This document shows positions 1,707 to 26,786 of a stretch of DNA of 30,178 nt, piece after piece; within the stretch, counting starts at the first letter, position 1, and the number at the start of each line of letters is the position of its first letter. Position numbers and translations under genes: made by a program. This DNA comes from a virus, in the UHGV virus genome UHGV-0037346; one strand, written 5' to 3'. Under the pieces are notes generated by a model. The model was given only the letters and a program-made list of their open reading frames with translations. It searched no databases and was not told the origin of the DNA.

Positions 1707-4154
1707 TTAACCGTCATGCATCATGCTGGCACGGGCGCGCGCACGTTTATCCCGCTCGTATTTTTCGAGCGCATCCTGTAACTGGCGGTCAAGCTGTGTC
1801 CCCGGTGCAGTACCACCCGTCAGGCTGATGTGATATTCGTTTTTACTCTGGTCCACATAAGAGCGGCCAGCCGGTGCCGTGACCGGCTGATAAGCCTGAT
1901 AACCTGCATAAGAGCTGGTCGCCGGAATATAACCACCGCTGCCATACGTGGCGGCTTGAGTTCTGGCGGCGGTCTGGTCAAGTGTGTCTGACTCTTTGTT
2001 GATAACACCGAGTTTTTCCAGTACCCAGTCAATACCACTGCGCAGTTTGTTGAACGCATTAAGCGGCAGCATCAGCGCGTCAGCCAGTGCCTGCCCGAAC
2101 ATGACGCCCGTGTCACGGCAACGGTTCAGGGTGTCCTGGGTAGCTTTGACCGGGGCAATCAGGTTTTTAAACCACTGCCACGCGGCCTGTAACTTTTCAC
2201 CCAGCCAGTCAAACACCGGCTTAAGTGGCGTGAACAGTTCCCCCACAGGCGCAAATGCTGCTTTCAGCCCTTCAACCACACCGCCAAAGAATGCGCTGAC
2301 AGGCTCCCAGTATTTACGGATAAGCAACGCCCCGGCGACAATGGTGGCCACCACGGCCACAACCGGCCAGCTAATCGCCCCGATGGCGGTCATAACAGCA
2401 CTGCCAACCGTCGTGAAGACTGCCCCCATTGCGCCTGCTGCCGCGATGATGGCATTAATGCCGGTGATAACCGGCCAGGCTACAAGACCAATTGCACCGA
2501 TGATGCCAGTAAGCGCCAGTGCACCACCGACAATAAGGCCGATGGTTGACGCCAGTGATTTGTTTTTCTGGATCCAGCCGTCGAGTTTTAACACATACTT
2601 TGTGGCCGTCTGCGTGAGCTTACGCAGTGCGCCTTCCTGCTGGTCAAACAGGTCAGTCCCCACCGCCTCATAAGCGGACTGAAACTCCTTAAAGTCACCG
2701 CCGAGGTTGTCCTGCATGATATTTACCAGCTCTGCGGTCTTTCCGTCTGAGGCTTTAAACGCAGCGGTCAGTTTGTCCAGCTTTCCGGTTGAGGCGGCAG
2801 TCATCAGCACGGCGGCGGCTGAACTGGCCTCCTCCCCGAAAATGGTTTTCATGTATTCAGCCTGCTGGGCAGTACCGAGCCGGTTTTTCTCAAAGCTGGC
2901 CTGCATTTCTTTCAGAATGGTAAATACTGGTCGGGTGTTTCCCTTACTGTCTGAGGTTTTCACGCCAAGCTCTTTCAGTGCATCCCATGCTTTTCCCGTC
3001 GGTGCCTGCAGGCGGCTTAACACGGCACGGCTTCCCGTCCCCGCCATTGAACCGGTAATTTTTGCATCATGCAGCGCCCCGACCATTGCGGCGGTTTCTT
3101 CAATGCTGACACCGGCATTTTTTGCCACAGGTGCGGCATAGGTCAGCGCATCGCTCATGCCGTCAAAATCGGCGGCGGTTTTGTTCATCGTCATGGAGAG
3201 AACATCCCCGATATGAGCGACCTTATCGTTTGAAAGCTGAAAGGCGGATTTCATCCCCATCAGCAGGGCGGCATTTTCTTCCATCGTGCGACGGTTCGCC
3301 AGCGCCATATTCAGCGTGACCGGCGTTGCCGCCTGAATGGCATCAACATCCCCACCGGCTTTCGCAATAATAATCTGCGCACCGGCCGCATCATCCGCCG
3401 AGGCGGCGGTATTGTCGCCGAGCTGGCGCGCCTGTTTGCGTAATGCGGCCATTTCGGCGGAGTCTTTTGCCACACCGAGCACAGCCTGCAATTCTGAGTT
3501 TTTCTGCGCAAACTCATAACCGGGCATCAGCAGCTTAACTCCGGCCATCGTTCCCGCCGCCGCAATCCCCACACCGGCAGCGCCCACTGAGGCCATATTT
3601 CCGGCCAGTTCCTTTCCGGCCTGATAACGCTGTTTGACTGCGTTAAGTTTTGCCTGTTGCGCACTGACACGCGCCAGCGCGTCGCGCTGACGGTTAAGCT
3701 GTGCGGTGGTTTCACTGATACGGTTTTTCAGTCCCTGCTCATCATGTGCAAGATTGCGGGTATTAATTCCCACAGCGGCCAGTTCCCGCTGCTGGCGTTT
3801 AACGGAATCCGTCAGGCGGTTATATTTCGCCTGTAAGTCCTCCGCCGCTCGCTTTGCGGATTCCAGCACTTTCGCCTGAGCACGGGTCGGACGTTCGGTG
3901 TTTTTAAACTGTGTGGCAAGGGCTTCGGCTTCCTGCCGTGCCTTTTCAAGTGCATGACCAGTCACGGCGAGTTGCGCACTGGTCTTGCGAAATCCCTCAA
4001 TACGGGATGCGTGACCGTTCAGCTCGCGCAGTGATTTTTGTGTTTCCCGGATATCCCCCGACAGCGACTTGCTCGCTGTGCGGATGGATTTAAACGGGCG
4101 GGATGCCTGGTCAACAGCCCTGAGCAATACCTGTAATTTTACATTGTTACTCAT
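1707..4154 (-). CDS. T: Tail tape measure protein (P2 gpT family)
   Basis: 815-aa ORF; coiled-coil N-terminal region, Ala/Gly-rich transmembrane-like middle segments typical of tape measure proteins; ATG at 4154 overlaps E' stop. Confidence 0.9.
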   Translation of the reverse strand: MSNNVKLQVLLRAVDQASRPFKSIRTASKSLSGDIRETQKSLRELNGHASRIEGFRKTSAQLAVTGHALEKARQEAEALATQFKNTERPTRAQAKVLESAKRAAEDLQAKYNRLTDSVKRQQRELAAVGINTRNLAHDEQGLKNRISETTAQLNRQRDALARVSAQQAKLNAVKQRYQAGKELAGNMASVGAAGVGIAAAGTMAGVKLLMPGYEFAQKNSELQAVLGVAKDSAEMAALRKQARQLGDNTAASADDAAGAQIIIAKAGGDVDAIQAATPVTLNMALANRRTMEENAALLMGMKSAFQLSNDKVAHIGDVLSMTMNKTAADFDGMSDALTYAAPVAKNAGVSIEETAAMVGALHDAKITGSMAGTGSRAVLSRLQAPTGKAWDALKELGVKTSDSKGNTRPVFTILKEMQASFEKNRLGTAQQAEYMKTIFGEEASSAAAVLMTAASTGKLDKLTAAFKASDGKTAELVNIMQDNLGGDFKEFQSAYEAVGTDLFDQQEGALRKLTQTATKYVLKLDGWIQKNKSLASTIGLIVGGALALTGIIGAIGLVAWPVITGINAIIAAAGAMGAVFTTVGSAVMTAIGAISWPVVAVVATIVAGALLIRKYWEPVSAFFGGVVEGLKAAFAPVGELFTPLKPVFDWLGEKLQAAWQWFKNLIAPVKATQDTLNRCRDTGVMFGQALADALMLPLNAFNKLRSGIDWVLEKLGVINKESDTLDQTAARTQAATYGSGGYIPATSSYAGYQAYQPVTAPAGRSYVDQSKNEYHISLTGGTAPGTQLDRQLQDALEKYERDKRARARASMMHDG

Positions 4155-4574
4155 TCGTGTTTCCGCTTCGCCGGAGCGCCTTTTCGCGCCATGTGATGAG
4201 TTCGGTCAGGCTCATGGGATACAGTTCTGATGGCGGCCAGTGAAATATCACTGCCACATCCGCCATCAGGTCATCGACCGAGAGATTTTTCGGAAACGTC
4301 ACTGCACCGAGTTCGGCGACAAAAAACCGACCACCTTACCGGCCAGCGCCACAAGGTCAGGCAGTTCCAGCGCGGCGACTTCCTGCTCGGTCAGCATCGG
4401 TGCCGTCATGCGCGGCAGCACTTTAATCAGTGCATCGACTTCGGAGTTCGCGACTGCAGCCAGACTGACACCGCGCAGCGTCCCGGCACTGGGTTTCATC
4501 AGCGTGACCTGTTCGATAACCTGCTCACCACGTTTGACCGGATTGTCCAGGGTAATGACGTTTTCTTTGTTCAT
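4147..4574 (-). CDS. Tail assembly chaperone E+E' (programmed -1 frameshift product)
   Basis: Manual translation: E frame reads GTC GGT TTT TTG TCG ... TGA (stop 4301-4299); -1 frame from the T TTT TTG heptamer stays open for ~58 codons (…FFVAELGAVTFPKNL…LITWREKALRRSGNTNE) and stops at TAA 4149-4147, overlapping the T start ATG (4154-4152). Confidence 0.75.
4299..4574 (-). CDS. E: Tail assembly chaperone E (P2 gpE family)
   Basis: 91-aa ORF immediately upstream of T; ends ...GFLSPNSVQ; contains slippery site near 3' end. Confidence 0.85.
   Translation of the reverse strand: MNKENVITLDNPVKRGEQVIEQVTLMKPSAGTLRGVSLAAVANSEVDALIKVLPRMTAPMLTEQEVAALELPDLVALAGKVVGFLSPNSVQ
4320..4326 (-). other. Slippery heptamer T TTT TTG for E/E+E' -1 translational frameshift
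   Basis: Minus-strand sequence GGT TTT TTG in the E frame; X XXY YYZ-type motif in the same position as the P2 E/E' frameshift. Confidence 0.7.
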
Positions 4575-4630
4575 GGTTTTCTCACTTCTGAATCGGGGTT
4601 AACCGGTCAGCCAGGCTGACCGGATGAAAA

Positions 4631-5149
4631 TCACAGGCCGATATTGCGGCGGTGTTGCTCCAGCCGGTCGACGCCGTTCACCTTCTCAATCATGTTGATG
4701 GTGTCGATTTCGACCAGCTCCTTACCGTCCATCGTCAGCCGGAAATAGGTGCAGACCACGGAGATTCTCGACTCGGTGTCTTCTCCCTGTTTGCCCTCGC
4801 CGGTGTCGATTTCTTTCTGACGTCCACGCATGACCACTTCGACGGCCACCGTTTCGCCGGTATCGTCGCGCTGGTAAGAGCCTGCAAAACGAATCGGCAC
4901 GGCATCCACACCGGTTGCGGCGTAAAGCTCCCAGATAACCGAATCCGGGAAGCCACCGAGCGACCACTCCATTGACAGCGCATCGTCATCAAGGCCGAGG
5001 TCTACCGGTGCGCTGCCGTTCATCCCCGCACCGCGATAGTTTTCGAGCTTACGGGTCAGTTTTGGCAGCGTGACGGACTTTGCAACGCCCTGATAGCTGT
5101 AGCCGTTCAGAAAGACGTTCATTAACTTGAGTTTGCGCGGCATTGCCAT
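4631..5149 (-). CDS. FII: Tail tube protein FII
   Basis: 172-aa ORF, ATG at 5149, directly downstream of sheath gene; size matches P2 gpFII. Confidence 0.88.
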   Translation of the reverse strand: MAMPRKLKLMNVFLNGYSYQGVAKSVTLPKLTRKLENYRGAGMNGSAPVDLGLDDDALSMEWSLGGFPDSVIWELYAATGVDAVPIRFAGSYQRDDTGETVAVEVVMRGRQKEIDTGEGKQGEDTESRISVVCTYFRLTMDGKELVEIDTINMIEKVNGVDRLEQHRRNIGL

Positions 5150-5161
5150 CGGTCAGGCTCC

Positions 5162-6352
5162 TTAATTGCTGTTAACCGAGGTGACCAGATTTGCCAGGTA
5201 TTTATCGGTAATACGCTGGCGCAGGGTCAGGTTTTCAAGAGGAGGCACCGGGGTATAGTCGTAGTCGATATACAGTTTTCCGGCCTTGAGGGTTTCCGCA
5301 TCGTTGGATTCTTCGCTGAACCAGCAGGTCGCATCCACGATATAGCCGTTTGTTTTCAGCTCACGGAATTTGGCATTGATGCCGTCAACGATGTCGCGAA
5401 TCAGCGTGGCGGTGATGGGCTTGTCCACCGCCCACATGTGCGCCTCAGCCATCGTGTCGGCCAGCACCTGCGCGGTGCGGGTGTAGTTTTCAAAGAGGAA
5501 CAGCGGGTCATCAGAGCAGGTACGGTTACCCCAGAAGCGGAAACCGTCACGGCGAATCAGCGTAGTGACGCCTGACTCGTTAAGCAGGTCAGCATCGGTG
5601 CCGGACTCCTGCAAATCCCAGAATACAGAGGCGCTGATGCCGGTAACACCGTTTACCCCGACGTTGGACAGCGTTTTATGCCAGCCCTGCTCCTGGTCGA
5701 TTTTAGCGCGCAGACCCAGCGCACGGGCGGTGGCATACGCGGTGGCGGTGGTACTGGTGACCGTATCCCATGCGAGGAAATCCGGCCAGATGACCATCAG
5801 CTCACGCTGGCTGAAATTCTGGCGGTAGGCTTTCACCTCGGAAATGGTTTTACAGCCCCATGCGCTGATATACCCGAAAGCGCGCAGCTTCTGACAGACG
5901 GATGCCAGTGCAACAGCCACCTCTTTGGTATCCAGTCCCGGCACACCGAGAATACGCGGTTTAACACCGGTTACCGACTCCGCCGCCAGCAGGGCTTTCA
6001 GTCCGGTGTACTGACCGTTTTCGTCAGTGGTGCCGATGATATTGGAAACGGTCTGCGCGAGTTTCGTTTCTTCGTCGTCGCCGGTTCCGTCTTCCACGCG
6101 CACGACAACGGTGACCGGTTTTGACTGGTCAGCGATGGCCTGCAACGATGCCGCCAGCGTGCCTTTTTTACCGGCCTTTGCAATCGCGCTCTGCACATTG
6201 GTGATCAGCACCGGTTTATTGACGGGGAAGGTTTCCGCATCCGCATCGCTGGCCGTGCAGACCATGCCAACAATGGCGGTGGATACGGTGGAAATGACGC
6301 GGGTGCCGTCGTTAATCTCCAGCACCTGCACGCCGTGATGATAGTCACTCAT
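5162..6352 (-). CDS. FI: Contractile tail sheath protein FI
   Basis: 396-aa ORF, ATG at 6352 preceded by GGAG; size and position match P2 gpFI. Confidence 0.9.
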   Translation of the reverse strand: MSDYHHGVQVLEINDGTRVISTVSTAIVGMVCTASDADAETFPVNKPVLITNVQSAIAKAGKKGTLAASLQAIADQSKPVTVVVRVEDGTGDDEETKLAQTVSNIIGTTDENGQYTGLKALLAAESVTGVKPRILGVPGLDTKEVAVALASVCQKLRAFGYISAWGCKTISEVKAYRQNFSQRELMVIWPDFLAWDTVTSTTATAYATARALGLRAKIDQEQGWHKTLSNVGVNGVTGISASVFWDLQESGTDADLLNESGVTTLIRRDGFRFWGNRTCSDDPLFLFENYTRTAQVLADTMAEAHMWAVDKPITATLIRDIVDGINAKFRELKTNGYIVDATCWFSEESNDAETLKAGKLYIDYDYTPVPPLENLTLRQRITDKYLANLVTSVNSN

Positions 6353-6411
6353 CCGTTTAACTCCGTGGTTAATGGGTGAGTGTTATTTTCAGTTGTGCCG
6401 GAGATGTCAGG

Positions 6412-7005
6412 CTATTTGTCCCGGTTGGTTAAGGGATGACACAATTTATTCTTTGTCGCTGATGAGGGGAATTTTTTATAGAGCGTGGACAGGCCAATAT
6501 CAAAAATCAGCGCCACACGTTGACGAGATTCCCCCGCAGCCAGCAACCGTCCGACCTGCTCCCACTCACTCGCGGTGAGTTTCGGACGTCTGCCACCAAT
6601 ACGACCTTTGGCTCTGGCCGCTTCCAGTCCGGCGCGTGTCCGCTCGACAATGAGTTCTCGTTCCATTTCAGCCAGGGCACCCATCACATGGAAGAAAAAA
6701 CGCCCCATCGGCGTGCTGGTATCAATAGCATCCGTCAGGCTGCGAAAATTAATGCCGCGTTCGCGCAGTTCCTCAACCAGAATGACCAGATGCCGCATAC
6801 TACGCCCCAGCCTGTCCAGCTTCCAGACAACCAGAGTGTCACCTTCCGATAATGTTCTGAGCAGTTTTTTCAGTCCCGGTCGGTCGGACTTAGTGCCGCT
6901 GATTTTATCCTCAAAAATCAGCTCACATCCTGCGCACTCCAGCGCGTTACGCTGCAATTCCGTGTTCTGGTCATTTGTTGACACGCGTACATAGCCAATA
7001 AGCAT
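6412..7005 (-). CDS. Serine recombinase, DNA invertase (Gin/Pin/Cin/Hin family)
   Basis: N-terminus MLIGYVRVSTNDQNTELQRNAL with catalytic Ser motif, resolvase core ...VVWKLDRLGRSM..., C-terminal HTH ...ALIFDIGLSTLYKK; second in-frame ATG (7005) gives the canonical invertase N-terminus; ORF track start is 7011. Confidence 0.9.
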   Translation of the reverse strand: MLIGYVRVSTNDQNTELQRNALECAGCELIFEDKISGTKSDRPGLKKLLRTLSEGDTLVVWKLDRLGRSMRHLVILVEELRERGINFRSLTDAIDTSTPMGRFFFHVMGALAEMERELIVERTRAGLEAARAKGRIGGRRPKLTASEWEQVGRLLAAGESRQRVALIFDIGLSTLYKKFPSSATKNKLCHPLTNRDK

Positions 7006-7224
7006 GAGCATCCCCCTGAATAAAAACCGGAGATGATGCCAGTTGCCCGTTATCTCTGCATTTTCTTAAACGTTGCTTTAAGATGGGCGTGGTCACCACC
7101 ACATCATCAAAGTGGAACGCGCTGGGAGCGTACCGCTGCAGAATGGGGCATCTCATTAAGCAGTTGATTACTTCCATTGCGAGTGATTCAATAGATATTG
7201 AAAATTCACCCGAAGAGAAAGAAA

Positions 7225-8370
7225 ATGCAAGGAAATAGAATTGACTTTGTCAATACTTTGAGAGGATTTGCAGCATTAGCCGTTGTTATTGCTCACTATA
7301 CTGGTAATTTTTGGTCAATGCGAACAGCAGTAGCAAGTCTTACAAATGCTCCTGAATTACCATCTGAAACATATGCTTGGCCTAGTTATCTTGTATGGCT
7401 CCATGCCTTCCCTTTGTTTAACTGGGGGGCTTTCGGCGTTGCTATATTTTTCATCATTAGCGGGTTTGTCATTCCACTCTCGCTACAAAAAATAACATTT
7501 CACGGTTTTTTATTAAGCAGAATCATTAGAATAATACCAACATATATTATTGGTTTTACTATAACGCTTACAGCCATATTGATAAGCAGTAAATATTTTT
7601 CAGTGGAATGGCCATTTAATAACAAAGAAATATTGATTCACTACATCCCTGGAATCAGAGACTTGTTGTACTCCAGGAGCATTGATGGAATCATTTGGAC
7701 ACTGGAGATAGAAATGAAGTTTTATCTCATTTGCGCTATATTAATAGCAGTATTTCGCAAGCACTCCATAAAAGTTTTCATTACCCCGCTTATTCTTTTT
7801 TTGTTTGCTCTCTATATTAACAAGGTTGCTCCTGAATGGATTAACTCCAATATATCAGCATTCCATCTTGCCATGGCATACATGTTTTTTTCTCAGTATA
7901 TTATTTATATGTTTATCGGAACCATGTTTTATTATATGTATTGTGGTTATATAAATGCCAACAAGGCTTATCTTGGAATCGGCATATTATTTACTTTATT
8001 CTGCATTCTTTGGTGGGCTGGTCCATATTCAGCCAGTATAAATGTCGCCTGGAGCTATGCATTTGCGCTTTTGGTCTTTGCTTTTGCTTATGCTCACCCA
8101 AAATTATTTAAATCCAATAGGTTTTTTGATTTTTTTGCCAACATAAGCTATCCGCTATATATTATCCACGGGGTAGCTGGGTATGTCGCCCTTCGAATTT
8201 TACTTGAAATGGGGTTTAAAGCATGGGTATCTCTCTTAATTGTGACTTTTTCCATTATATTTTCGTCATGGTTAATACACATCTTGATTGAATCCCCTTC
8301 TCAGAGAGCAGGCAAGCGCCTCGTAGCTAAACGAGGTAGGCCATTAAAAAAAACAGCGCAACCAACCTAA
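7225..8370 (+). CDS. Acyltransferase family 3 integral membrane protein (Oac/OafA-like; putative O-antigen acetyltransferase)
   Basis: N-terminal motif NRIDFVNTLRGFAALAVVIAHY typical of acyltransferase_3; ~10 hydrophobic segments; strongly AT-rich and rare-codon-biased compared with flanking phage genes; ATG at 7225 (ORF track start 7198 is TTG). Confidence 0.8.
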   Translation: MQGNRIDFVNTLRGFAALAVVIAHYTGNFWSMRTAVASLTNAPELPSETYAWPSYLVWLHAFPLFNWGAFGVAIFFIISGFVIPLSLQKITFHGFLLSRIIRIIPTYIIGFTITLTAILISSKYFSVEWPFNNKEILIHYIPGIRDLLYSRSIDGIIWTLEIEMKFYLICAILIAVFRKHSIKVFITPLILFLFALYINKVAPEWINSNISAFHLAMAYMFFSQYIIYMFIGTMFYYMYCGYINANKAYLGIGILFTLFCILWWAGPYSASINVAWSYAFALLVFAFAYAHPKLFKSNRFFDFFANISYPLYIIHGVAGYVALRILLEMGFKAWVSLLIVTFSIIFSSWLIHILIESPSQRAGKRLVAKRGRPLKKTAQPT

Positions 8371-8410
8371 TAGATCTTATCAAGTAAAGGCAGCTGCTCT
8401 TATTATACAA

Positions 8411-8437
8411 GAGGTGCACTTTCTTCGAGTGCACCTC
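8411..8437. terminator. Candidate bidirectional hairpin between convergent acyltransferase and tfa genes
   Basis: Perfect 9-bp inverted repeat GAGGTGCAC-(9 nt)-GTGCACCTC in the 127-bp convergent intergenic region; flanking U-tracts are weak. Confidence 0.4.
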
Positions 8438-8497
8438 CTCTGAAAAACAACTTTATAAAATTATTTTCATCGCCATATTATTCATTAATCACCCATC

Positions 8498-8890
8498 TTA
8501 CGGAATAATAGGCCAGCTAATCTCTGCATCAGTGTTAGCGTCAATCCTGCTCAGCAGCACACGGTATTGTTTCCACAGAGGCAACGTGGCGGATTCTGCA
8601 TCTGTAGCCATACCCAGATCGACGGCATCCTGTAGCACACCAATTTGCTGCGTTGCTTCATTCATCAGCGAATTTTTCATAGCGAAGTTATTGGTAATTC
8701 GCAGTTGTTTTGCTGCTGCTAATTCTTCATCGGTCGGAGTTGGCGCACTAAAAACGCCATTGACGTAATGCCAACCGATACCCATACCTTCAGTAGAGAG
8801 AATGGCGCTGGCTGATTCAGGCCATTCTGACTTGCCATCCCAGATAACAATATTTTCTACGATGCCATTTTTGATAATTGCATAGTTCAT
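8498..8890 (-). CDS. Tail fibre assembly protein (P2 gpG-like Tfa)
   Basis: 130-aa ORF directly downstream of tail fibre; C-terminal ...LPLWKQYRVLLSRIDANTDAEISWPIIP resembles the conserved Tfa C-terminus. Confidence 0.8.
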   Translation of the reverse strand: MNYAIIKNGIVENIVIWDGKSEWPESASAILSTEGMGIGWHYVNGVFSAPTPTDEELAAAKQLRITNNFAMKNSLMNEATQQIGVLQDAVDLGMATDAESATLPLWKQYRVLLSRIDANTDAEISWPIIP

Positions 8891-10404
8891 TTACGCATAC
8901 TCCATAACAATAACCACACCCGCAGAGCCATTACCGCCATTAACGTTTTGATTTCCACTGATTGTTGCCGCGCCATTACCACCCGCACCATACCCACCAG
9001 GGCCAGAAATAAAGCTGCCGCCGCCAAGACCGGAACCTACAGTCCCTCCGACTGCTGTTGGGGTTGCCATCACACCGGGTAGCCCGGCGTACCCGTTGCA
9101 CAAAATGGCACCCACGGTCGAAGTGCCACCCTGACCGCCCATGCCACATGACGCAGAGGAGCCTGACGCAGTGCAGCCGTTGCCTGGCTGGCCTCCACTT
9201 GCTGAGAGATAAGAGCCAAAAGTCGTCGTACCACCCTGCGTGCCATTGGTCATCGTCGAGGCAATACCGCCATTACCACCCGCACCAATCGTGACAAGCA
9301 CGGTTGATATTGCAGACAGGTTAAAGAGACCACGTGCCATTCCGCCGCCACCGCCACCACCACCCGCGGCGTTATAGTTTCCTGTGGAAGTTGCCCATCC
9401 GCCGCCCNNNNNNNNNNGTTATAGTTTACTGTGGAAGTTGCCCATCCGCCGCCCCCACCGCCCCCAATAGCGATGACATCCGCGAACATTGCTCCGGGAG
9501 TTTTGGTGTAAGTGCCAGACGTCTTGATTATCTGCATGCCAATCAGACGACCGACTGCGCCGTTATTTACTAAACCAAGGTATGCGAGAAGACCGGCAAC
9601 ATCCTTTCCACTCAAATGAGTCAGCGTATTGTCCAGCGGTTGTTTACCTGCCAGCGCATTGTTAATGGTGGTGCTGAATTTCGGGTCATTGTTAATGGCT
9701 GCGGCAATTTCTTTCAGTGTGTCCAGCGTGGCAGGCGCACCATTAATCAGAGCGGTAATAGCAGCCTGTACAAACGCAGTGGTCGCAATCCGCGTGGTGT
9801 TATTTCCTGCATCAGGAGTCGGCGCTTTTGGTTCTCCGGTAAATGTCGGATTATGTTTCTGTGCATACTGGGTATGAGGATCCTGTGCGGCAATGTGGTT
9901 TCTCATCTGGTCATCCACATACAGCCTTAATTCCAGGACTTCATCATCCACGTATTTACGGGTCGCCAGTACCACCGACGGGTCGATTTTCAGCGTGATG
10001 GCTTCGGTATTCGTGACAACCAGAATCATGCGGATAGTCTGGGTACGACCACTGCCTTCCTGCAACTGCGGTTTGTACGTTTCCGGGCAGTTCGCCACCG
10101 CAATGAGTACGCCTTCATCATCATAAAGCCCAATCTCACGGATCCAGAATCCGCCCTCGTTCTCAGGGATGATTTGCTCCGCAATAATCTGGCTCTGGTT
10201 GTTCGGGTCAACACTCAGAAGATTCAGCGGCGCGATGCGTTTCTGGTTAATCAGTTTTGTCTGTGCCGGGTCTGGTGTCGGCAAGACACCATTCGCATCA
10301 CCAACGGCCATTTGCGTCAGATTCAGCTTACTGCCGAGCATCGTCGCGTTAGCCAGCCGTGCTGCGCCCTGATTAGTCAGAATGGCGTAGTATTTCACTG
10401 TCAT
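8891..10404 (-). CDS. H: Tail fibre protein (P2 gpH-like), interrupted by assembly gap
   Basis: N-terminal ~150 aa resemble the P2 H N-terminal domain (…MAVGDANG…GGFWIREIGLYDDEGVLIAVAN…YKPQLQEGSGRTQ…); Gly-rich C-terminal part (8891-9340) joins in frame when read through the repeat downstream of the N-run; the reading frame on either side of the 10-N gap differs, so the true length is unknown. Confidence 0.7.
9408..9417. other. Assembly gap (10 N) inside tail fibre gene
   Basis: Run of n characters; flanked by a ~37-bp direct repeat (9371-9407 and 9418-9454, one mismatch). Confidence 0.95.
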
Positions 10405-11012
10405 GCGTTTACTCTCAGGTTATCAATTAAATGAATGGCCGAGGCCGGGAAATAATCCCCTCCGACAATAATGGCCTCCGGGGTGTAGGGATAAACCGTC
10501 AGGGCGTCACCGTGATAGCATCCCGCACCGGCAAAAATGTTGCCGGTTGTACTTAAACTGATAGCCAGTCCCGTCAGATGGCGGCTTGCCGGTTTTGCAT
10601 CAGCAACGAGGCGCTCCAGCTCCTGATACATTTCCTCGGTAATACCCTGCTCAAGCACGCCAACAACGATGCGGAACGTCCCCGGCTCCTCGTTGAGTTG
10701 CCACCACTCCCTCACCTCAATCAGATAGCCGAGCGGCTCCACCACACGCCGGATTGCGCCTATAGTGCCCTTATGGCAGTGAATGAAATACGCATCGCGG
10801 ATAACAGCGCGTTTTGTCGCTTCCGGCCACTTATCATCCCAGCGGTCAACCGAAAATGACCACGCCAGCCACGGCAGCAGATTTGCCGGGCAGGTGTCCG
10901 GGTTCCACAGCTCACGAATACTGACCGGTGTTTTTTCAATTTCCGCACAGGCTTTTGCAGCAGCGACTTCAAGCGGTGATGAGCCGGTCGGCAGCAGTCG
11001 CGAATCACTCAT
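10401..11012 (-). CDS. I: Baseplate/tail protein I (P2 gpI family)
   Basis: 203-aa ORF between J and H; stop overlaps H start. Confidence 0.8.
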   Translation of the reverse strand: MSDSRLLPTGSSPLEVAAAKACAEIEKTPVSIRELWNPDTCPANLLPWLAWSFSVDRWDDKWPEATKRAVIRDAYFIHCHKGTIGAIRRVVEPLGYLIEVREWWQLNEEPGTFRIVVGVLEQGITEEMYQELERLVADAKPASRHLTGLAISLSTTGNIFAGAGCYHGDALTVYPYTPEAIIVGGDYFPASAIHLIDNLRVNA

Positions 11013-11913
11013 CCGAGCCTCCGGTCACGACGCGGTATTCGGTACAGAAAGACGCCTGCGTACTGTTGAGCACGATGTCGGCCAGTGGTGAAGCCAGTTC
11101 AACACGCTGCACGCCTTCCACATGCAAAGCGGCATAAATGGCAGACAGACGGATGTCACGCCCCAGCCGGTGCTGTGCCGTGATGTACGCTTCCAGTTTT
11201 TTCACGGCGGCAGCGCGTATGGGTTCGCTTTCGGGACCAGGGTAAAGGTAAAGCGTGGCGTTTATCTGGTATTCAACGATGGCGGCAGACTGCACGGTCA
11301 CGCGGTCGGCCACCGGCCTGACGTCCTCGCCATTAAGGGCGTTACGCACCACAGCCAGCAGGTCTTCGGATGCGACGCCGTTATTTTCACGTGACAGCAC
11401 AGAGATGGTGACGCAGGCCGGAGACGGACTGGTGACAGAAATATCCGCGACACGCCCGTCAGCACTGCGACCATGATACTGATAGGCTCCCACCGACCCG
11501 GCGACGCTTAAGCCCTCAAACGCCTGCTGAATACGCAGACGATAATCGGTGTCAGACTCCATCACTGCCGGTGTCGGCGGGATAGTCGAATCATCTGCCG
11601 GGGTGATAATCAGGCGCGTGGTGTTGTAATTGGCACCAATCACATCAAGGTCATTACCGGCGGCACAGGCCAGCATCACCGCCCGTGCGGCCTCATTCAC
11701 ACGCTGACGCCAGATAAGCTCACGATAAGCGTTTTCTTCCAGCAGTTTGACGAGAGGCTCGGATTCCAGCGTCAGGGTACGGGCGACCGCCTCCTGCTGG
11801 TCTTCCGGGTAAAGGGAAATCAGTGTCGCCTTGCGTTCGGCAAGAATGGTTTCAAAGTCCAGCTCCTCGATCACATCCGGTGCGGGTAGCTGGTTCAGGT
11901 CGATAATCGGCAT
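11005..11913 (-). CDS. J: Baseplate assembly protein J
   Basis: 302-aa ORF, same size as P2 gpJ, between W and I. Confidence 0.88.
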   Translation of the reverse strand: MPIIDLNQLPAPDVIEELDFETILAERKATLISLYPEDQQEAVARTLTLESEPLVKLLEENAYRELIWRQRVNEAARAVMLACAAGNDLDVIGANYNTTRLIITPADDSTIPPTPAVMESDTDYRLRIQQAFEGLSVAGSVGAYQYHGRSADGRVADISVTSPSPACVTISVLSRENNGVASEDLLAVVRNALNGEDVRPVADRVTVQSAAIVEYQINATLYLYPGPESEPIRAAAVKKLEAYITAQHRLGRDIRLSAIYAALHVEGVQRVELASPLADIVLNSTQASFCTEYRVVTGGSDE

Positions 11914-11917
11914 GGTT

Positions 11918-12265
11918 TCAACTCACAGGGATGGTTAACGAAAGTGGCTGGCCGGTGTCGTTGTGCTGGCCGGTTAACGTGACCGTCATTCGCCCGTCAA
12001 AACTGCGCGCCGTGGTGACAGATGACAGGGTGACGCGAGGTTCCCATTTCAGCACCGCCATGTAACAGGCGACCTTAATCTGCAACTCAAGCGCCGGGGT
12101 CTGCGGCTGGTCAATCATTGATGCCAGCAACGAGCCGTAATCACGACGCATCACCCGTGAGCCGACCGGTGTGCGCAGGATATCGCCGATACTCTGGCTG
12201 ATATGCTCAAGGTCAGTGACCGTCAGGCCATCACTGCGATTCATTCCGAGATAACGCGCAGTCAT
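11918..12265 (-). CDS. W: Baseplate protein W
   Basis: 115-aa ORF, same size and position as P2 gpW. Confidence 0.85.
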   Translation of the reverse strand: MTARYLGMNRSDGLTVTDLEHISQSIGDILRTPVGSRVMRRDYGSLLASMIDQPQTPALELQIKVACYMAVLKWEPRVTLSSVTTARSFDGRMTVTLTGQHNDTGQPLSLTIPVS

Positions 12266-12897
12266 AGAGGTCCCCCTGTTGTGCCGCCACTGTCGCCGGG
12301 GTGTTTATGGGTATGCAGTACCTTACCGTTTGATGAGAGTTCACCGCCGGTGTGTTCAATGTTGCCGCGCATCGTCCCGCCCTTCTGCACTTCCAGCGTG
12401 CCGGTAATCAGCCTGTTGGTGCAGACCACCTCCGGTGCGTCCATGGTGATGCGGGTTGATGCTTTCACCATGACCACCGGCACCGTGGCAGTAACAGAAT
12501 CAGAAGCCGTCACGCTGACCGTTTTAATTCCGCTTACCATGAGTGCACTGGTTTCGGGTTCATACTCAATCACCGCCCCGTCAGGGAAACGGATATGCAG
12601 GGCATCCGCCGACGCAGACGGCGCGGGGTTATCACCGGAATAAATCCCCGGCAGAACAAACGCCGTGTCAAGTTCACCGCCCACGGCCAGAATCAGCACC
12701 TGTTCCCCCACGGAAGGTGCCCACCATGTACGCGAACGCCCGGCACGATGGGTCAACCACTGAAGCCAGTCGGTGCACATGCCGCCGGTCTGCACACGGC
12801 AGCGACCGGCGTTAAGGTCGGTTTCGACGATAACGCCGGTGCGAATCATATTGCGCAGTGCGCGCGCGAGTTCCTGAATATTTGCGAGAGTGTTCAT
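12262..12897 (-). CDS. V: Baseplate spike/assembly protein V
   Basis: Start taken at internal Met (MNTLANIQELARALRNM…), giving 211 aa, matching P2 gpV; ORF track start is 12933. Confidence 0.85.
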   Translation of the reverse strand: MNTLANIQELARALRNMIRTGVIVETDLNAGRCRVQTGGMCTDWLQWLTHRAGRSRTWWAPSVGEQVLILAVGGELDTAFVLPGIYSGDNPAPSASADALHIRFPDGAVIEYEPETSALMVSGIKTVSVTASDSVTATVPVVMVKASTRITMDAPEVVCTNRLITGTLEVQKGGTMRGNIEHTGGELSSNGKVLHTHKHPGDSGGTTGGPL

Positions 12898-12974
12898 AAC
12901 GGAAAGGATGCCGCTGGACGATACCAGCAGCAATCATGGAGGGTTCTGTCAGCTGTGACACAACATAACAAATA

Positions 12975-13730
12975 TTAGTTGTAGCACTTCTCTATAATCT
13001 TCATACACTCCTCATGAGCTAAATCATGGCTGTCAAATTCTTTATTAAAAAAGAAGAAAAACGCCTTCTTAACCTGAGGAATTTCAATAAAAATAAATTC
13101 ATCAACCTTATGAAAGAAATGAAAACTCTTGTTTGATGTTTCAAAAACCATCAAAGAATTATGTTTTTTATCCTTCCATTTCGACATCAGATTGCGTCGC
13201 GATTTTCGTATAATCCTGAAGACATCCCCCGGCGTCGTATCGACATTCCCCCAAAACATTGCAACCGGGAAGTTTGCAAGAAACGGGATATAATCACCAC
13301 CTTTATACCTGAGAAAGCGGTTCCGCAAATCCATTAATTGCAACTTAAAACCCATGTATTGCAACCACCATATGATGCAATCATACTCATAATCTGTTAA
13401 CTCCTCCCCTCTCTTTTCCGTAAGAAATTTCTTCAGGTTATACTCAAACACTCCCAGCAAATCAGAATTGCACACTCTGCATGCTGGTACAGTGGCTTTA
13501 ATGTAATGAGTTGACTGATTATTCTTTTTATTAATTAAAGATTTTTCAGCATTTGACTCAAAGGCCCACTGAGGAATAATGTGCTCACGAGTAATATCGT
13601 CAGAACTCCCGCATAACACACATATATCAGCATTATGGTCAGCAATAATACAATCCATAACTTTCTTTTGAGAATGCTTTACTCTTTTTCTCAAAATGGA
13701 AAACTTTTTATCCACAAACACCCGTCTCAT
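12975..13730 (-). CDS. HNH-motif protein, AT-rich cargo at the S-V (P2 orf30) locus
   Basis: 251-aa ORF in clearly AT-rich DNA; motif C-VL-C…REHIIPQW…N…C-RV-CN matches the HNH (beta-beta-alpha-metal) signature; start ATG overlaps S stop (13727-13730). Confidence 0.6.
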   Translation of the reverse strand: MRRVFVDKKFSILRKRVKHSQKKVMDCIIADHNADICVLCGSSDDITREHIIPQWAFESNAEKSLINKKNNQSTHYIKATVPACRVCNSDLLGVFEYNLKKFLTEKRGEELTDYEYDCIIWWLQYMGFKLQLMDLRNRFLRYKGGDYIPFLANFPVAMFWGNVDTTPGDVFRIIRKSRRNLMSKWKDKKHNSLMVFETSNKSFHFFHKVDEFIFIEIPQVKKAFFFFFNKEFDSHDLAHEECMKIIEKCYN

Positions 13731-23316: not shown

Positions 23317-24246
23317 TCAAACCAGGCTTTTGCCTTGCTTCATTTTTTTAGATGAGTCTAAAAATTTGAAATTATCATTAGATGAAAATATTCTTTCTGC
23401 GGTATGCCGAATGACTGAAGTATTGAAGACCGCAGCCTGCTCCTCATTACAACTGAATACACCCTCATGACCATCAAACTCGCCCGCCAAAAGAAGGTTT
23501 TTTGATACTGGGAACAAAACTAAAGTGTCTTTTACACCAAACCCGGGGGAATAAGGGCCTCGTGCTAATTCAGGATTAGTCCACATTAAGCAAACTGGGT
23601 TATCTGAAGTTATAAATGACCCTTGCCCATCAGATATGGTCATAAGTGACCAGTTGCGTTGATGCAACAACTTGGTGATAACAGGTACACATTTCATTTC
23701 CATATCTATCATGAACTCTCTGATTACATTGATTTCGAAATTATCCCCATCCACAAAATTTTTAATTTTTTCGTAAGCGAGATCATATGGCAAAGACTCA
23801 CCCATTTCTTTCTCATAAGCTAATTTGCAATCGTCCCAACGCTCAGCCGAACTAACTGAGGATTTCATGATAAACTTTGCTATTTGTTTCAATGGAGATG
23901 ATAAATGTTCTCGCTGAGCAGGCGTACGTATTGCCAATAAGGAAATAAACTCCAGAATAACATCTTTGGTTTCGCCTGAAAACTCGCCCCCCTCCTCAAG
24001 TTTTCTTAAATGAGTAGCGACACTGCCTTCAAACTCTGCAAGAGAACTCTCGAGATAGTTTGGGTCAACTCCATCCAATTCTAATCGGTTGAAATCTCTA
24101 ACCCCCCCGACATTGCGAGTATTACTCTCAAAGGTTTTGCGCTCCTTTAAATCTATTACAGTTAATTTTGATTTTTTCCCCCCATTACTTGTAAACCCTT
24201 TCAAATAACATTGGGATAAAAAATGATGATGCCTTGCAACACTCAT
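23317..24246 (-). CDS. Hypothetical protein, AT-rich cargo at the cos-A (tin/old-equivalent) locus; possible DUF4238-like
   Basis: ~310 aa from ATG 24246 (GGAG 7 nt upstream); N-terminal HHHFLSQCYLKGF and later …FITSDNP… motifs; clearly AT-rich; no TM segments seen. Confidence 0.55.
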   Translation of the reverse strand: MSVARHHHFLSQCYLKGFTSNGGKKSKLTVIDLKERKTFESNTRNVGGVRDFNRLELDGVDPNYLESSLAEFEGSVATHLRKLEEGGEFSGETKDVILEFISLLAIRTPAQREHLSSPLKQIAKFIMKSSVSSAERWDDCKLAYEKEMGESLPYDLAYEKIKNFVDGDNFEINVIREFMIDMEMKCVPVITKLLHQRNWSLMTISDGQGSFITSDNPVCLMWTNPELARGPYSPGFGVKDTLVLFPVSKNLLLAGEFDGHEGVFSCNEEQAAVFNTSVIRHTAERIFSSNDNFKFLDSSKKMKQGKSLV

Positions 24247-24349
24247 ACTCAGCTCCGTTATGGCTATAATCGCATAAATAATAAGCACTTATATTGCAAT
24301 CATCTAGTTAAATACACAATATTTATGACTCCGAAATTTCATTAAATCA

Positions 24350-26521
24350 CTATTGATAGGTTTTACCAATTAGTGCCAGCTCGAAATGGATGCGTGGAAT
24401 CTGCGAACGTTCAGCCTTTGTCATCCGCCCTGATGGCGCTATCTGGTACGGTTTTAATGGTTCGCAGTTTCTTTGTTGCCAATTCGGTCTCGGTGCACCA
24501 TGTTTTAATGCACTCCTGAGCACCGTCACAACTTCCGGGTCATCCCATCCGATAACACCACTATCAACCAGATTTAACACCGCTGCGGCATGCTCAGACG
24601 GTGTAGGGTGCATAACCGGAACGTCACCGCCGGTGAACTTTCCACAGTTATTGACAGGACTCCGAGGCGCGGCGATGCCGCTTTTTAAAGTCAAAGGCTC
24701 AACGACCGGCACTTTCGGAACAATGCGCCAGTCCGTCGTTCTGGTGATATGAATATGACGCGCGCCGAGATGCGGCGCGTAAATGCCGACCACTCTCTCG
24801 ACTTCTTCCTCGTACTCGTTAACTTCATCCGACGGACTACGGGCAACCCTGACAGTCTGACAATCGCGCGGAACATTTGCCCCACCCTGCGCGCTGATAT
24901 ACAACGCAAAATCACCACTGTCTGCGGCGGCGCGTGCAGCCTCGACGCGTTCGTCAAACTCATCAGCAATGCTGACGCCGCGAGGCAATTTGCGTAGTTC
25001 ACGGTAAGCCCCCATTGTCGGCAGGCCAACCGTTTTAAATTGCGGAATGCGCCACGTTGACGCCCATGCGGTAACAGCCGCGGCAGTGTCTTTCAGCGGC
25101 CTGCCGGTATCGTTATCGAGCTGACCATCCAGTGCATAGCCATCGATGTTTTTTGAGATGTATTTCGCGATATATCCCGCAGCACCGCCCCGGTTAAGGT
25201 GTTTTGCCTGAAAACGGTTTCGCGCGGCTCCTCTTTCGTCACCATCCTCTTTGAGCGCATAGCGACGCATGATTTCGATAATCTGGTTACGCTGGCGTGG
25301 ATTACAAAAAAGCATCATATGCCAGTGCGGCGTTCCGTCGTGGTGTGGCTCGACGACTCGCAAACCGTAGACCTGTAAATCATTATCCTTGAATGCCGTG
25401 CGCATCAGGCTCCAGATGCGGCAGAGATAACGCTGCGCATCCTTTGGATTAAATGCCTCATCATTCCAGCCGTGATTTAGCTGGACGGTTTTACTTTCGC
25501 CTTTTCCGACCTGACGTGTCGGGTGATACTTTGACGGCGCGGTCAGAGTGATAAACATCCCCACATCACCCTCTGCGGCGGCGTAACGCTCAATACCGGC
25601 GATGGTGTTCATCAGCTCCATCCGGCGAATTTCAGGATTAGAAATACTGCCCATCACCTTACTGATAAGGTCGATGCGCTCGCCGGTTTCCCTGTTTTCG
25701 AGGTCACACGATTTAAGAAATTCCAGATTTGCCTGGCGGCGTGCACGCACATCACGAATGGCATGTTTACTGGCATAAGGAGAACGGTCTTTATTGACCT
25801 CCCCGACAGCAATCAGTAACGCCTCATGCCAGCGCATACGCTGGCCTTTAAGCTGATGAGTCCACCACTCATCGTTAAACAGACGGGCAATGGCAGAATA
25901 TGCCTGCCTCGTGGTCATCTGTCCTTTACGGTATTTTTTCCAGTAGAGAGGGGAAATATTGAAAGCACGTGCAGCGCCAGCAACATGACCATACAGATGC
26001 GCCTGCGCCTCATCTGTAAACAGCGATTCTTTCTCGCCATGTGCATCAACCCATGCATCGCAGAGTTCCTCATACATCATGAAAAGCTGCGATGAGATAC
26101 GGGCGGCAAACTTTTTCAGCTCCTTGTCATTCATCCCCGGCAGACGCGCATAATGGTCACGCTCTGCCAGAAACAGCAACGACGCGTCGGTGTTCATTTC
26201 ATGGCGCTGATTCACGCGCTCAATACGCGGCCATAAACGGCGCTGAAAAGTGGATGTGAGGAAATAAAACCCGTGCACCGGGCTTTTATTGCGCCGGATG
26301 TAGTCATAGCGTGAAGTAAACAGCGAGCGCAAAAAGTAAGGCAGGCGATTAATCGTGGATAAAACACCTTGCACCTGACGCATCTCGTCACGTGTAAGGG
26401 GTCTTTCGCGCCCGACGGCCTCGCGTGGCGCGTTCCATGCATAAGCACCGGTAAACGTCTCACCGGTGCCTGCGGCAAATGCTGACGGAGGGACAAAACG
26501 CCCGGAGGCTTTAACGGCCAT
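24350..26521 (-). CDS. A: Replication initiation endonuclease A (rolling-circle, P2 gpA family)
   Basis: Contains GYIAKYISKN tandem-tyrosine active-site motif; N-terminus MAVKASGRFVPPSAFAAGTG…; start taken at ATG 26521 (upstream in-frame TTG at 26563 also possible). Confidence 0.85.
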   Translation of the reverse strand: MAVKASGRFVPPSAFAAGTGETFTGAYAWNAPREAVGRERPLTRDEMRQVQGVLSTINRLPYFLRSLFTSRYDYIRRNKSPVHGFYFLTSTFQRRLWPRIERVNQRHEMNTDASLLFLAERDHYARLPGMNDKELKKFAARISSQLFMMYEELCDAWVDAHGEKESLFTDEAQAHLYGHVAGAARAFNISPLYWKKYRKGQMTTRQAYSAIARLFNDEWWTHQLKGQRMRWHEALLIAVGEVNKDRSPYASKHAIRDVRARRQANLEFLKSCDLENRETGERIDLISKVMGSISNPEIRRMELMNTIAGIERYAAAEGDVGMFITLTAPSKYHPTRQVGKGESKTVQLNHGWNDEAFNPKDAQRYLCRIWSLMRTAFKDNDLQVYGLRVVEPHHDGTPHWHMMLFCNPRQRNQIIEIMRRYALKEDGDERGAARNRFQAKHLNRGGAAGYIAKYISKNIDGYALDGQLDNDTGRPLKDTAAAVTAWASTWRIPQFKTVGLPTMGAYRELRKLPRGVSIADEFDERVEAARAAADSGDFALYISAQGGANVPRDCQTVRVARSPSDEVNEYEEEVERVVGIYAPHLGARHIHITRTTDWRIVPKVPVVEPLTLKSGIAAPRSPVNNCGKFTGGDVPVMHPTPSEHAAAVLNLVDSGVIGWDDPEVVTVLRSALKHGAPRPNWQQRNCEPLKPYQIAPSGRMTKAERSQIPRIHFELALIGKTYQ

Positions 26522-26786
26522 ATGAGCCAAAAGCCTCTGAACAACGCTTGCTGAGTTGCTCAACCTGCGCGTTTAAATCAGCAAAAGACTTTGCGCTTCC
26601 GGTCAGAATATCGTGATGCATCAGGCCGGAAACAAGCTGGCTTAATTTCGGGTAATAACCAACCACCGCCAGCCATTCCTGACCGGCGTTTTTACCGCTT
26701 TCAGCTCTCTTTTTCTCGTGGAGAATAAACTGAAAGCTGTCACTGGTAACGACATAACGTTCGCCAATTTCAATACGAATACTCAT
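26511..26786 (-). CDS. Small early-operon protein (P2 orf83 position)
   Basis: 91-aa ORF, ATG start overlapping upstream stop; no recognisable motif. Confidence 0.5.
   Translation of the reverse strand: MSIRIEIGERYVVTSDSFQFILHEKKRAESGKNAGQEWLAVVGYYPKLSQLVSGLMHHDILTGSAKSFADLNAQVEQLSKRCSEAFGSYGR

Follow-up and report, generated by a model that had tools for sequence, protein, structure and literature searches.

The virus genome UHGV-0037346 (hereafter the window, meaning the whole 30,178-nt stretch that was analyzed) carries a membrane acyltransferase gene divergently beside a DNA invertase gene, which raises the question of whether site-specific recombination acts on the acyltransferase. A preliminary description of the interval between the two genes (7006-7224) had taken the 12-mer TGAATAAAAACC at 7017-7028 for a hix/gix-like half-site. 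It had proposed that the acyltransferase promoter could be phase-variable by inversion if a second site lay nearby, and that the 12-mer was otherwise probably a degenerate relic. Our analysis makes it highly probable that the window is a P2-like (pro483-like) prophage with a Gin/Pin-type invertible tail-fibre segment, that the acyltransferase gene replaces the second fibre cassette of this segment, and that the 12-mer is leader sequence only.

Prophage setting and crossover sites

The window corresponds to a near-complete P2-like prophage of the Peduovirus pro483-like type, with Escherichia phage pro483 as the nearest named phage (invertase identity 97.5%). The genes for the tape measure (1707-4154), tube (4631-5149), and sheath (5162-6352) lie on the minus strand, as do the invertase gene, the fibre chaperone gene, tail fibre gene H (8891-10404), and the baseplate genes I, J, W, and V. 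The acyltransferase gene (7225-8370, plus strand) opposes all of them. Contig QRII01000010.1 (assembly GCA_003471095.1; locus L010) equals the window at 100% identity, Ns included. The ten Ns at 9408-9417, within 9371-9454, are flanked by a 37-nt near-duplicate (36/37 identical) that is single copy in relatives, and they are evidently an artefact, a scaffolding gap with overlapping contig ends. This gap breaks the true 488-aa H into two open reading frames; an unbroken 488-aa H is present in locus L006.

The invertase (197 aa, 6412-7005, minus strand) was assigned to the Gin/Cin/Pin family of serine DNA invertases from Pfam, PHROG, and alignments. It contains the Pfam domains Resolvase (2.9e-52) and HTH_7 (5e-13) and falls in PHROG 125 ('DNA invertase'). 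It is about 80% identical to the Mu Gin structures 3UJ3 and 4M6F over residues 1-182, with Ser9 in MLIGYVRVST, and 78-79% identical to P1-type Cin and a Mu-like invertase. Both the alignment to Gin and the RefSeq gene models of relatives place its start at the ATG whose first base is 7005 on the minus strand. An in-frame ATG at 7011 is probably unused, because the Gin alignment begins at MLIGYVRVS.

The invertase and its gene also show possible features of Fis-stimulated recombination. In Hin, Gln151, Arg154, and Leu155 contact Fis and are conserved in invertases and not in resolvases (McLean et al., PMC3798978). The window invertase reads EQVGRLL where Gin reads EQAGRLL, so that Q, R, and L are kept; the equivalence to Hin numbering was derived via Gin. 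A candidate recombinational enhancer (6898-6960) lies within the gene, where Fis-consensus 15-mers at 6946-6960 and 6898-6912 (+53 and +101 of the open reading frame) have their centres 48 bp apart and occupy the same positions as in Mu gin, the motif itself being degenerate. The hin enhancer is 65 bp long, with a Fis site at each end and 47 bp from centre to centre (PMC3798978). Judged by motif and position, the two 15-mers would form a recombinational enhancer, and inversion would be expected to depend on Fis.

Two 26-bp, imperfectly dyad-symmetric sites were located in inverted orientation. The invertase-proximal crossover site (TTTTCTTAAACG TT GCTTTAAGATGG, 7061-7086, core 7073-7074) occupies the position of Mu gixR, and the distal site (ATTTACTAAACC AA GGTATGCGAGAA, 9565-9590, core 9577-9578) lies within gene H. 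Their 2-bp cores are the same dinucleotide on opposite strands (TT and AA on the plus strand), an arrangement that in the serine invertase family leads to inversion and not to deletion. The proximal site aligns column for column with annotated Mu gixR, and its core lies 68 nt from the start codon, compared with 67 nt in Mu. An inverted partner was thus present 2.5 kb away, within the several kb over which its absence would have spoken against any inversion. Both sites were found by a motif search (AAACCNNGGTTT), which picked 7068-7079 and 9572-9583, and by comparison with relatives. A generic inverted-repeat search over 6000-13000 found neither crossover site because the two share too few bases.

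The sites were also scored with a half-site weight matrix built from 20 Gin-type sites, or 40 half-sites, of independent relatives. Across the 30-kb window, the distal site scored best (21.1 bits) and the proximal site second (18.2 bits, partly circular for its outer half-site, since homologous invertase leaders were fed into the matrix). The third-best position reached 6.4 bits, and in 50 shuffles the maximum averaged 9.4 and peaked at 18.9. The segment-internal half of the proximal site (CCATCTTAAAGC) is a weak match at 3.3 bits, and inversion may be slow given this weakness.

The interval 7006-7224 singled out by the preliminary description does include the real crossover site, 33 bp beyond the 12-mer, and the crossover point at 7073-74 maps 45 bp outward of it. 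The 12-mer occurs a single time, 12-23 nt 5' of the invertase start codon, upstream of that start as had been described. It is read here as the T-run and pre-Shine-Dalgarno stretch of the invertase leader on the minus strand and not as a recombination site. The sense strand of this leader reads GGTTTTTATTCA-GGGGGA-TGCTC-ATG, and the 12-mer abuts the ribosome-binding site. The half-site score of the 12-mer, 2.7 bits, ranked 303rd among 60,292 positions, and the second half that it would need scored -12.6, in agreement with the earlier remark that a symmetric partner half is lacking. The leader containing the 12-mer is kept in relatives regardless of the adjoining segment (the classical NCTC9040 prophage, a glycosyltransferase variant, and an NHL-repeat variant), and the leader is recognisable also in Mu and about 20 other Gin-like loci. 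We judge the likeness of the 12-mer to a hix half-site to be superficial.

Two further features of this leader were considered. A terminator-like hairpin on the invertase strand (7044-7025) with the 12-mer as its T-run was rejected: leader folding showed no gain over shuffles (z = -0.14), and no covariation was seen among relatives. Separately, invertase leaders (window 7030-7045; L015, which is Mu, L026, L029, L044, and L054) share TGGCAT, about 8-10 nt, and G(C/G)TTTT, followed by the ribosome-binding site. Several of the relatives' leaders, Mu included, fit GG-N10-GC, the sigma-54 -24/-12 spacing, and the window has GG-N10-GG. This TGGCAT...G(C/G)TTTT element may belong to the invertase promoter.

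Orientation of the segment in near-identical prophages

The 2.5-kb segment between the two cores occurs in either orientation in sequenced E. coli. Of 5,426 complete E. coli genomes, 2 contain the acyltransferase cassette: in strains 102651 and TUM14664, DNA 99.8% identical to window 7073-9581 is turned around with respect to its flanks. Compared over 2,000 nt on each side of the segment, flipped loci L001 and L003 show 0-1 nt of difference from the window per flank. In the annotation of 102651 and TUM14664, H is cut short and followed by the acyltransferase gene on the same strand, and the fibre tip abuts the recombinase gene. The junctions of L001, ttctcgcatacc TT gctttaagatgg and atttactaaacc AA cgtttaagaaaa, are the exact reciprocal products of exchange at both cores. 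Four 42-nt junction strings, all of them found with 0 mismatches among 12 retrieved loci, identified 7 as window-type and 5 as flipped. Flipped L008 and L009 show 0 differences from window-type L005, L006, L007, L011, and L012 in 2,455 nt of the segment. Two of the flipped cases are complete, closed chromosomes. In public assemblies, 85 indexed blocks contain the exact acyltransferase protein.

These comparisons indicate that site-specific inversion has occurred repeatedly and in the very recent past, the events being dated as recent because zero SNPs separate flipped and unflipped copies. In the proposed mechanism, the invertase would recombine the inverted sites 7061-7086 and 9565-9590 at their cores (TT 7073-74 and AA 9577-78). 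Exchange at the cores would flip a segment of about 2.5 kb that comprises the acyltransferase gene with its upstream region, the chaperone gene, and the fibre C-terminus. The conditional claim that the acyltransferase is invertible if a partner lies nearby thus holds for the partner, 2.5 kb off, and for the inversion, documented by natural recombinants; it fails for the inverted unit, which is the 2.5-kb cassette and not a promoter.

Two competing accounts must be set against this mechanism. The 12-mer could still be a hix/gix-like half-site, either marking one boundary of a small invertible element whose promoter controls acyltransferase expression or left over as a relic of such an element. 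It ends in AAAACC, in common with the hix half-site (TTATCAAAAACC), and it adjoins the invertase gene, an expected place for a crossover site. Its low half-site scores and its conservation within a leader that includes Mu-proximal equivalents argue against this account. The 12-mer also moves with the invertase: it remains joined to the invertase gene in the flipped arrangement and so lies outside the invertible DNA. Natural recombinant junctions at 7073-74 already refute a half-site at the 12-mer, where no recombinant has a breakpoint. The relic option is displaced as well by the true site at 7061-7086 and its partner at 9565-9590, since natural recombinants break at both. We regard this account as extremely improbable. 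Scarcely more credible is the proposal that no active invertase produced the two orientations, which would instead reflect misassembly or old, fixed rearrangements due to homologous recombination. Assemblers can be confused by inverted repeats, and the window itself has a scaffold gap within the segment. The repeats, however, are 26 bp long and imperfect, too short for assembler confusion or RecA-type recombination, and the flipped state is seen in two closed chromosomes. The reciprocal junctions are exact at the 2-bp core, and the absence of SNPs between flipped and unflipped copies points to recent events, with the invertase open reading frame intact. Recent, invertase-mediated inversion between the two 26-bp sites is therefore the reading retained here.

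Public assemblies carry further marks of the crossover sites. Draft contigs L030, L031, L034, L037, L039, L040, L043, L045, and L055 break off 70-130 nt 5' of a Gin-like invertase gene, which places their ends at the crossover site, and the 2.7-kb contig L143 has the invertase leader at both ends, in inverted orientation. Contig ends at the site and the L143 pattern are the assembler output expected from orientation-mixed populations, and crossover sites are frequent break points of draft assemblies. The longest contig was just 2-5 kb in 34 of the 85 acyltransferase-bearing blocks. In one of the window-type loci, L005 (3357-4001), the equivalent of window 1711-6597 is missing, from the tape measure to the sheath together with the 3' two-thirds of the invertase gene. 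L005 is a defective prophage, presumably locked in the window-type orientation.

Tail fibre and acyltransferase in the two orientations

The distal crossover site divides gene H. The constant N-terminal part (residues 1-276, 9579-10404, minus strand; Pfam Phage_tail_fib, 1.4e-62) lies outside the segment. Inside are the variable, glycine-rich C-terminal part (residues 277-488, 8891-9576, minus strand; Pfam Gly_rich_2), which contains the gap at 9408-9417, and a 130-aa tail-fibre assembly chaperone (8498-8890, minus strand; Pfam Caudo_TAP, 1.1e-21). When the segment is flipped, residues 1-276 are fused to a 30-aa tail, ALRWAWSPPHHQSGTRWERTAAEWGISLSS, encoded by 7075-7167 on the plus strand with its stop at 7165-7167. 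The 488-aa H of the window orientation is thereby replaced by a 306-aa H', identical through residue 276, and the glycine-rich tip and chaperone are detached from H. Gene calling in flipped loci L009 and L013 yields this 306-aa product, and RefSeq labels the truncated gene 'missing C-terminus'. At the level of coding capacity, inversion demonstrably switches between a complete and a truncated tail fibre, and particles formed in the flipped state would be expected to lack a functional fibre.

The records of L001 (5175-6008) and L003 (2178-3011) treat the flipped-state fibre gene as a pseudogene ('incomplete; missing C-terminus') and call the detached tip a 'hypothetical' or 'glycine-rich domain' protein. 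The 'missing C-terminus' call is in fact one phase of the switch, recorded as gene decay.

The remainder of the segment is occupied by the acyltransferase gene. The 381-aa membrane protein matches Pfam Acyl_transf_3 (PF01757) at full length (residues 7-352, 6.5e-23, 81.7 bits against a cutoff of 31) and PHROG 3333, 'O-acetyltransferase' (2e-45), and had no match in NCBIfam. The GC content is 26-47% over approximately 7150-8500 and 47-64% in the flanking phage genes. A comparison of the cassette DNA with 50,697 phage records gave no match; at the protein level, the acyltransferase is at best 24-27% identical to phage homologues, which are generically named. A 59% homologue adjoins lysis genes in the viral contig L110, which has no invertase there. 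Classical relatives, NCTC9040 and pro483, hold the fibre tip and chaperone twice in the segment. Because the slot of relatives holds fibre tips and chaperone, the acyltransferase gene has, by this comparison, evidently replaced one fibre cassette. Where ordinary relatives have two alternative fibre C-termini, each with a chaperone, the AT-rich acyltransferase gene would have taken the place of one set. The replacement would have brought in the gene and about 150 bp of upstream DNA, acquired horizontally.

A 9-bp GC-rich perfect hairpin (GAGGTGCAC-9 nt-GTGCACCTC, 8411-8437) lies between the convergent acyltransferase and chaperone genes and may terminate both transcripts. It is absent from the output of the terminator scan, which requires a T-run that this hairpin does not have.

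How the acyltransferase gene is expressed bears on what inversion means for it. A sigma-70 scan for its promoter gave a sole match at 7198-7226, which overlaps the start codon, and none that was convincing; a scan for outward-reading promoters identified none. In the window orientation, the gene points away from the invertase and is convergent with the late tail operon. When flipped, its start lies 58 nt 3' of the H' stop and the gene reads in the direction of the V-W-J-I-H late operon; the terminator scan found no terminator-like site from the proximal core to the acyltransferase start. By analogy with morons, we assume that in lysogens the gene runs from its own promoter in the AT-rich stretch 7160-7224, and basal expression would therefore probably be independent of orientation. 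An effect of inversion on acyltransferase expression is possible.

The strongest form of such an effect would be that inversion is a true expression switch for the cargo. External transcription, from the late tail operon or from a promoter in or upstream of H, would drive the gene in the flipped state, and it would be silent or expressed at a much lower level in the window state. Cells would in that case modify their surface in a phase-variable manner or in step with lytic development. Acyltransferase, family-9 glycosyltransferase, and NHL-repeat genes, the last two described below for related loci, all read inward from the proximal site, and the cargo is positioned and oriented like the alternative fibre tip, so that flipping places it directly downstream of H in the late operon. 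The absence of both a terminator-like site before the start and a good internal promoter, and an intact invertase in several cargo-bearing backbones, also favor a switch. On the other side, P2 late operons are silent in lysogens, and read-through could hence give no lysogenic phenotype. Each type of cargo gene comes with an AT-rich upstream stretch of 100-265 bp, like morons with their own promoters (PMC3573123). In CFT073, which lacks an invertase there, neaT is placed and oriented in the same way, and a switch would yield fibre-less particles exactly when the cargo is most expressed. On balance, we consider a true expression switch unlikely, and a basal expression from the putative own promoter remains our working assumption.

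Cargo in related loci and comparison with known systems

The survey covered 18 genome loci with Gin-like invertases, mostly classical. The content of the slot was fibre-type only in a spread sample of 60 E. coli records. Metagenome loci that match the window in invertase leader and outer half-site numbered 67; all but one (L124) were fibre-type, and nearly all run in frame into GLGE-type tips of 94-210 aa. The exception, L124 (8587-9833), encodes a 326-aa NHL-repeat protein in the same slot and orientation, with the same invertase leader, 12-mer included, and outer half-site. A family-9 glycosyltransferase, of the LPS-core heptosyltransferase family, occupies the same slot in L004 (3606-4792) and L020 (4275-5462). 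This cassette occurs in both orientations, window-type in EC21Z-137 (L004) and flipped in an IMG/VR contig (L020). The two loci represent two different P2-like backbones, L020 having a different H and an 85%-identical invertase. The glycosyltransferase cassette has in common with the window only the 11-nt inner half-site GCTTTAAGATG, and H' with this cassette ends after ALR-stop.

The acyltransferase cassette itself also occurs on another backbone. IMG/VR contigs L107 (1-3100) and L109 combine it with a 56%-identical invertase and a Mu-type baseplate (Gp45, Baseplate_J, Gp48). The DNA of this cassette is 94-97% identical overall to the window, and the cargo and chaperone proteins are 99% identical. 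Identity begins right after the proximal core (..AAAAAAGG TT GCTTTAAGATGG..) and ends right after the distal core. The acyltransferase gene of L109 is split by an insertion of about 0.8 kb.

Because a cassette bounded by the cores is found in two unrelated tail backbones and the slot holds at least three cargo genes, these loci suggest that both cargo and fibre tips are exchanged at invertase sites. A further step would be to regard the cargo cassettes as a distinct portable phage module, in which a fibre tip and chaperone are linked to a surface-modifying enzyme, bounded by the cores, transplantable between backbones, and set as a two-state switch. This remains a doubtful proposition. If true, one state would give infectious virions and the other would have the surface-modifying gene transcribed with the late operon or from a promoter outside the segment, resulting in phase-variable or lysis-coupled surface modification.

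An observation on a different type of gene was made in Shigella flexneri and E. coli. In L032/L033 (3674-5500), an IpaH-type effector gene (LRR_TTSS and NEL E3 ligase) lies directly 5' of an 83%-identical Gin-like invertase gene. A poly-C tract takes the expected crossover position, with no site left.

The recombination machinery is that of the classical systems. Mu G/Gin, P1 C/Cin, and e14 P/Pin likewise have 26-bp sites with a 2-bp core, one site about 67 nt 5' of the invertase gene and the other in the fibre open reading frame. As in the Mu G segment, a constant fibre N-terminus joins invertible C-terminal DNA, and the candidate Fis sites are at the same positions as in gin. Unlike the G, C, and P segments, the segment described here has only one fibre tip and chaperone, and its other arm consists of the 30-aa tail and non-structural cargo. 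The alternatives are accordingly a complete and a truncated fibre, whereas in Mu, P1, and e14 they are host range A and host range B. Inversion of the fibre segment in P2-like prophages has been shown experimentally in EPEC E2348/69 (Goldberg et al. 2014, PMC4272514). The window shares with the P2-like invertible loci of E2348/69, pro483, and NCTC9040 the backbone, the order sheath-invertase-segment-H-I-J, the outer half-sites, and the invertase leader; those loci differ in carrying two or three alternative fibre C-termini.

Salmonella Hin/hix, the flagellar promoter switch, is similar in its recombinase family, site type, and enhancer within the invertase gene (PMC3798978). In Hin, however, the invertase and promoter lie inside the segment and the regulated genes outside, whereas here the invertase lies outside and the candidate regulated gene inside, together with upstream DNA of its own. 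With the invertase and constant H outside the segment, the arrangement is not that of a Hin-type promoter switch.

The closest counterpart of the cargo is neaT, an AT-rich Acyl_transf_3 moron of E. coli CFT073 that occupies 'moron position 2' of prophage phi-b0847 (Wiles et al. 2013, PMC3573123). Like the window gene, neaT lies in a P2-like prophage between the fibre chaperone and sheath genes (G and FI), opposite to the tail genes. The CFT073 locus differs in having no invertase and no invertible segment there, and the neaT paper makes no mention of inversion (PMC3573123). An identification of the cargo with neaT, based on the shared family and locus, was rejected: BLASTP gave E = 0.25, which amounts to no detectable similarity, and the two genes would therefore be independent acquisitions.

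A non-exhaustive literature search found no description of acyltransferase or glycosyltransferase cargo in an active invertible fibre segment. Recombination of this kind is textbook knowledge, and cargo in the slot of the alternative fibre appears to be undescribed. With a lysogenic-conversion-type gene in this slot, inversion toggles between a complete fibre and no tip, and it re-orients a surface-modifying gene relative to the late operon. Invertase-controlled lysogenic conversion thus becomes directly testable.

Two other genes of the window deserve mention. A 251-aa open reading frame (12975-13730, minus strand) lies between baseplate gene V and tail-completion gene S and had no Pfam or PADLOC match; in the otherwise near-identical prophages L001 and L008, its position holds merely about 67 nt. 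A 323-aa DUF4238 protein (23317-24288, minus strand) is a full-length PADLOC match to the candidate defence model 'DUF4238-Pers' (E = 1.8e-219), and its gene lies 61 nt 3' of a 737-aa open reading frame (24350-26563) taken as the replication gene.
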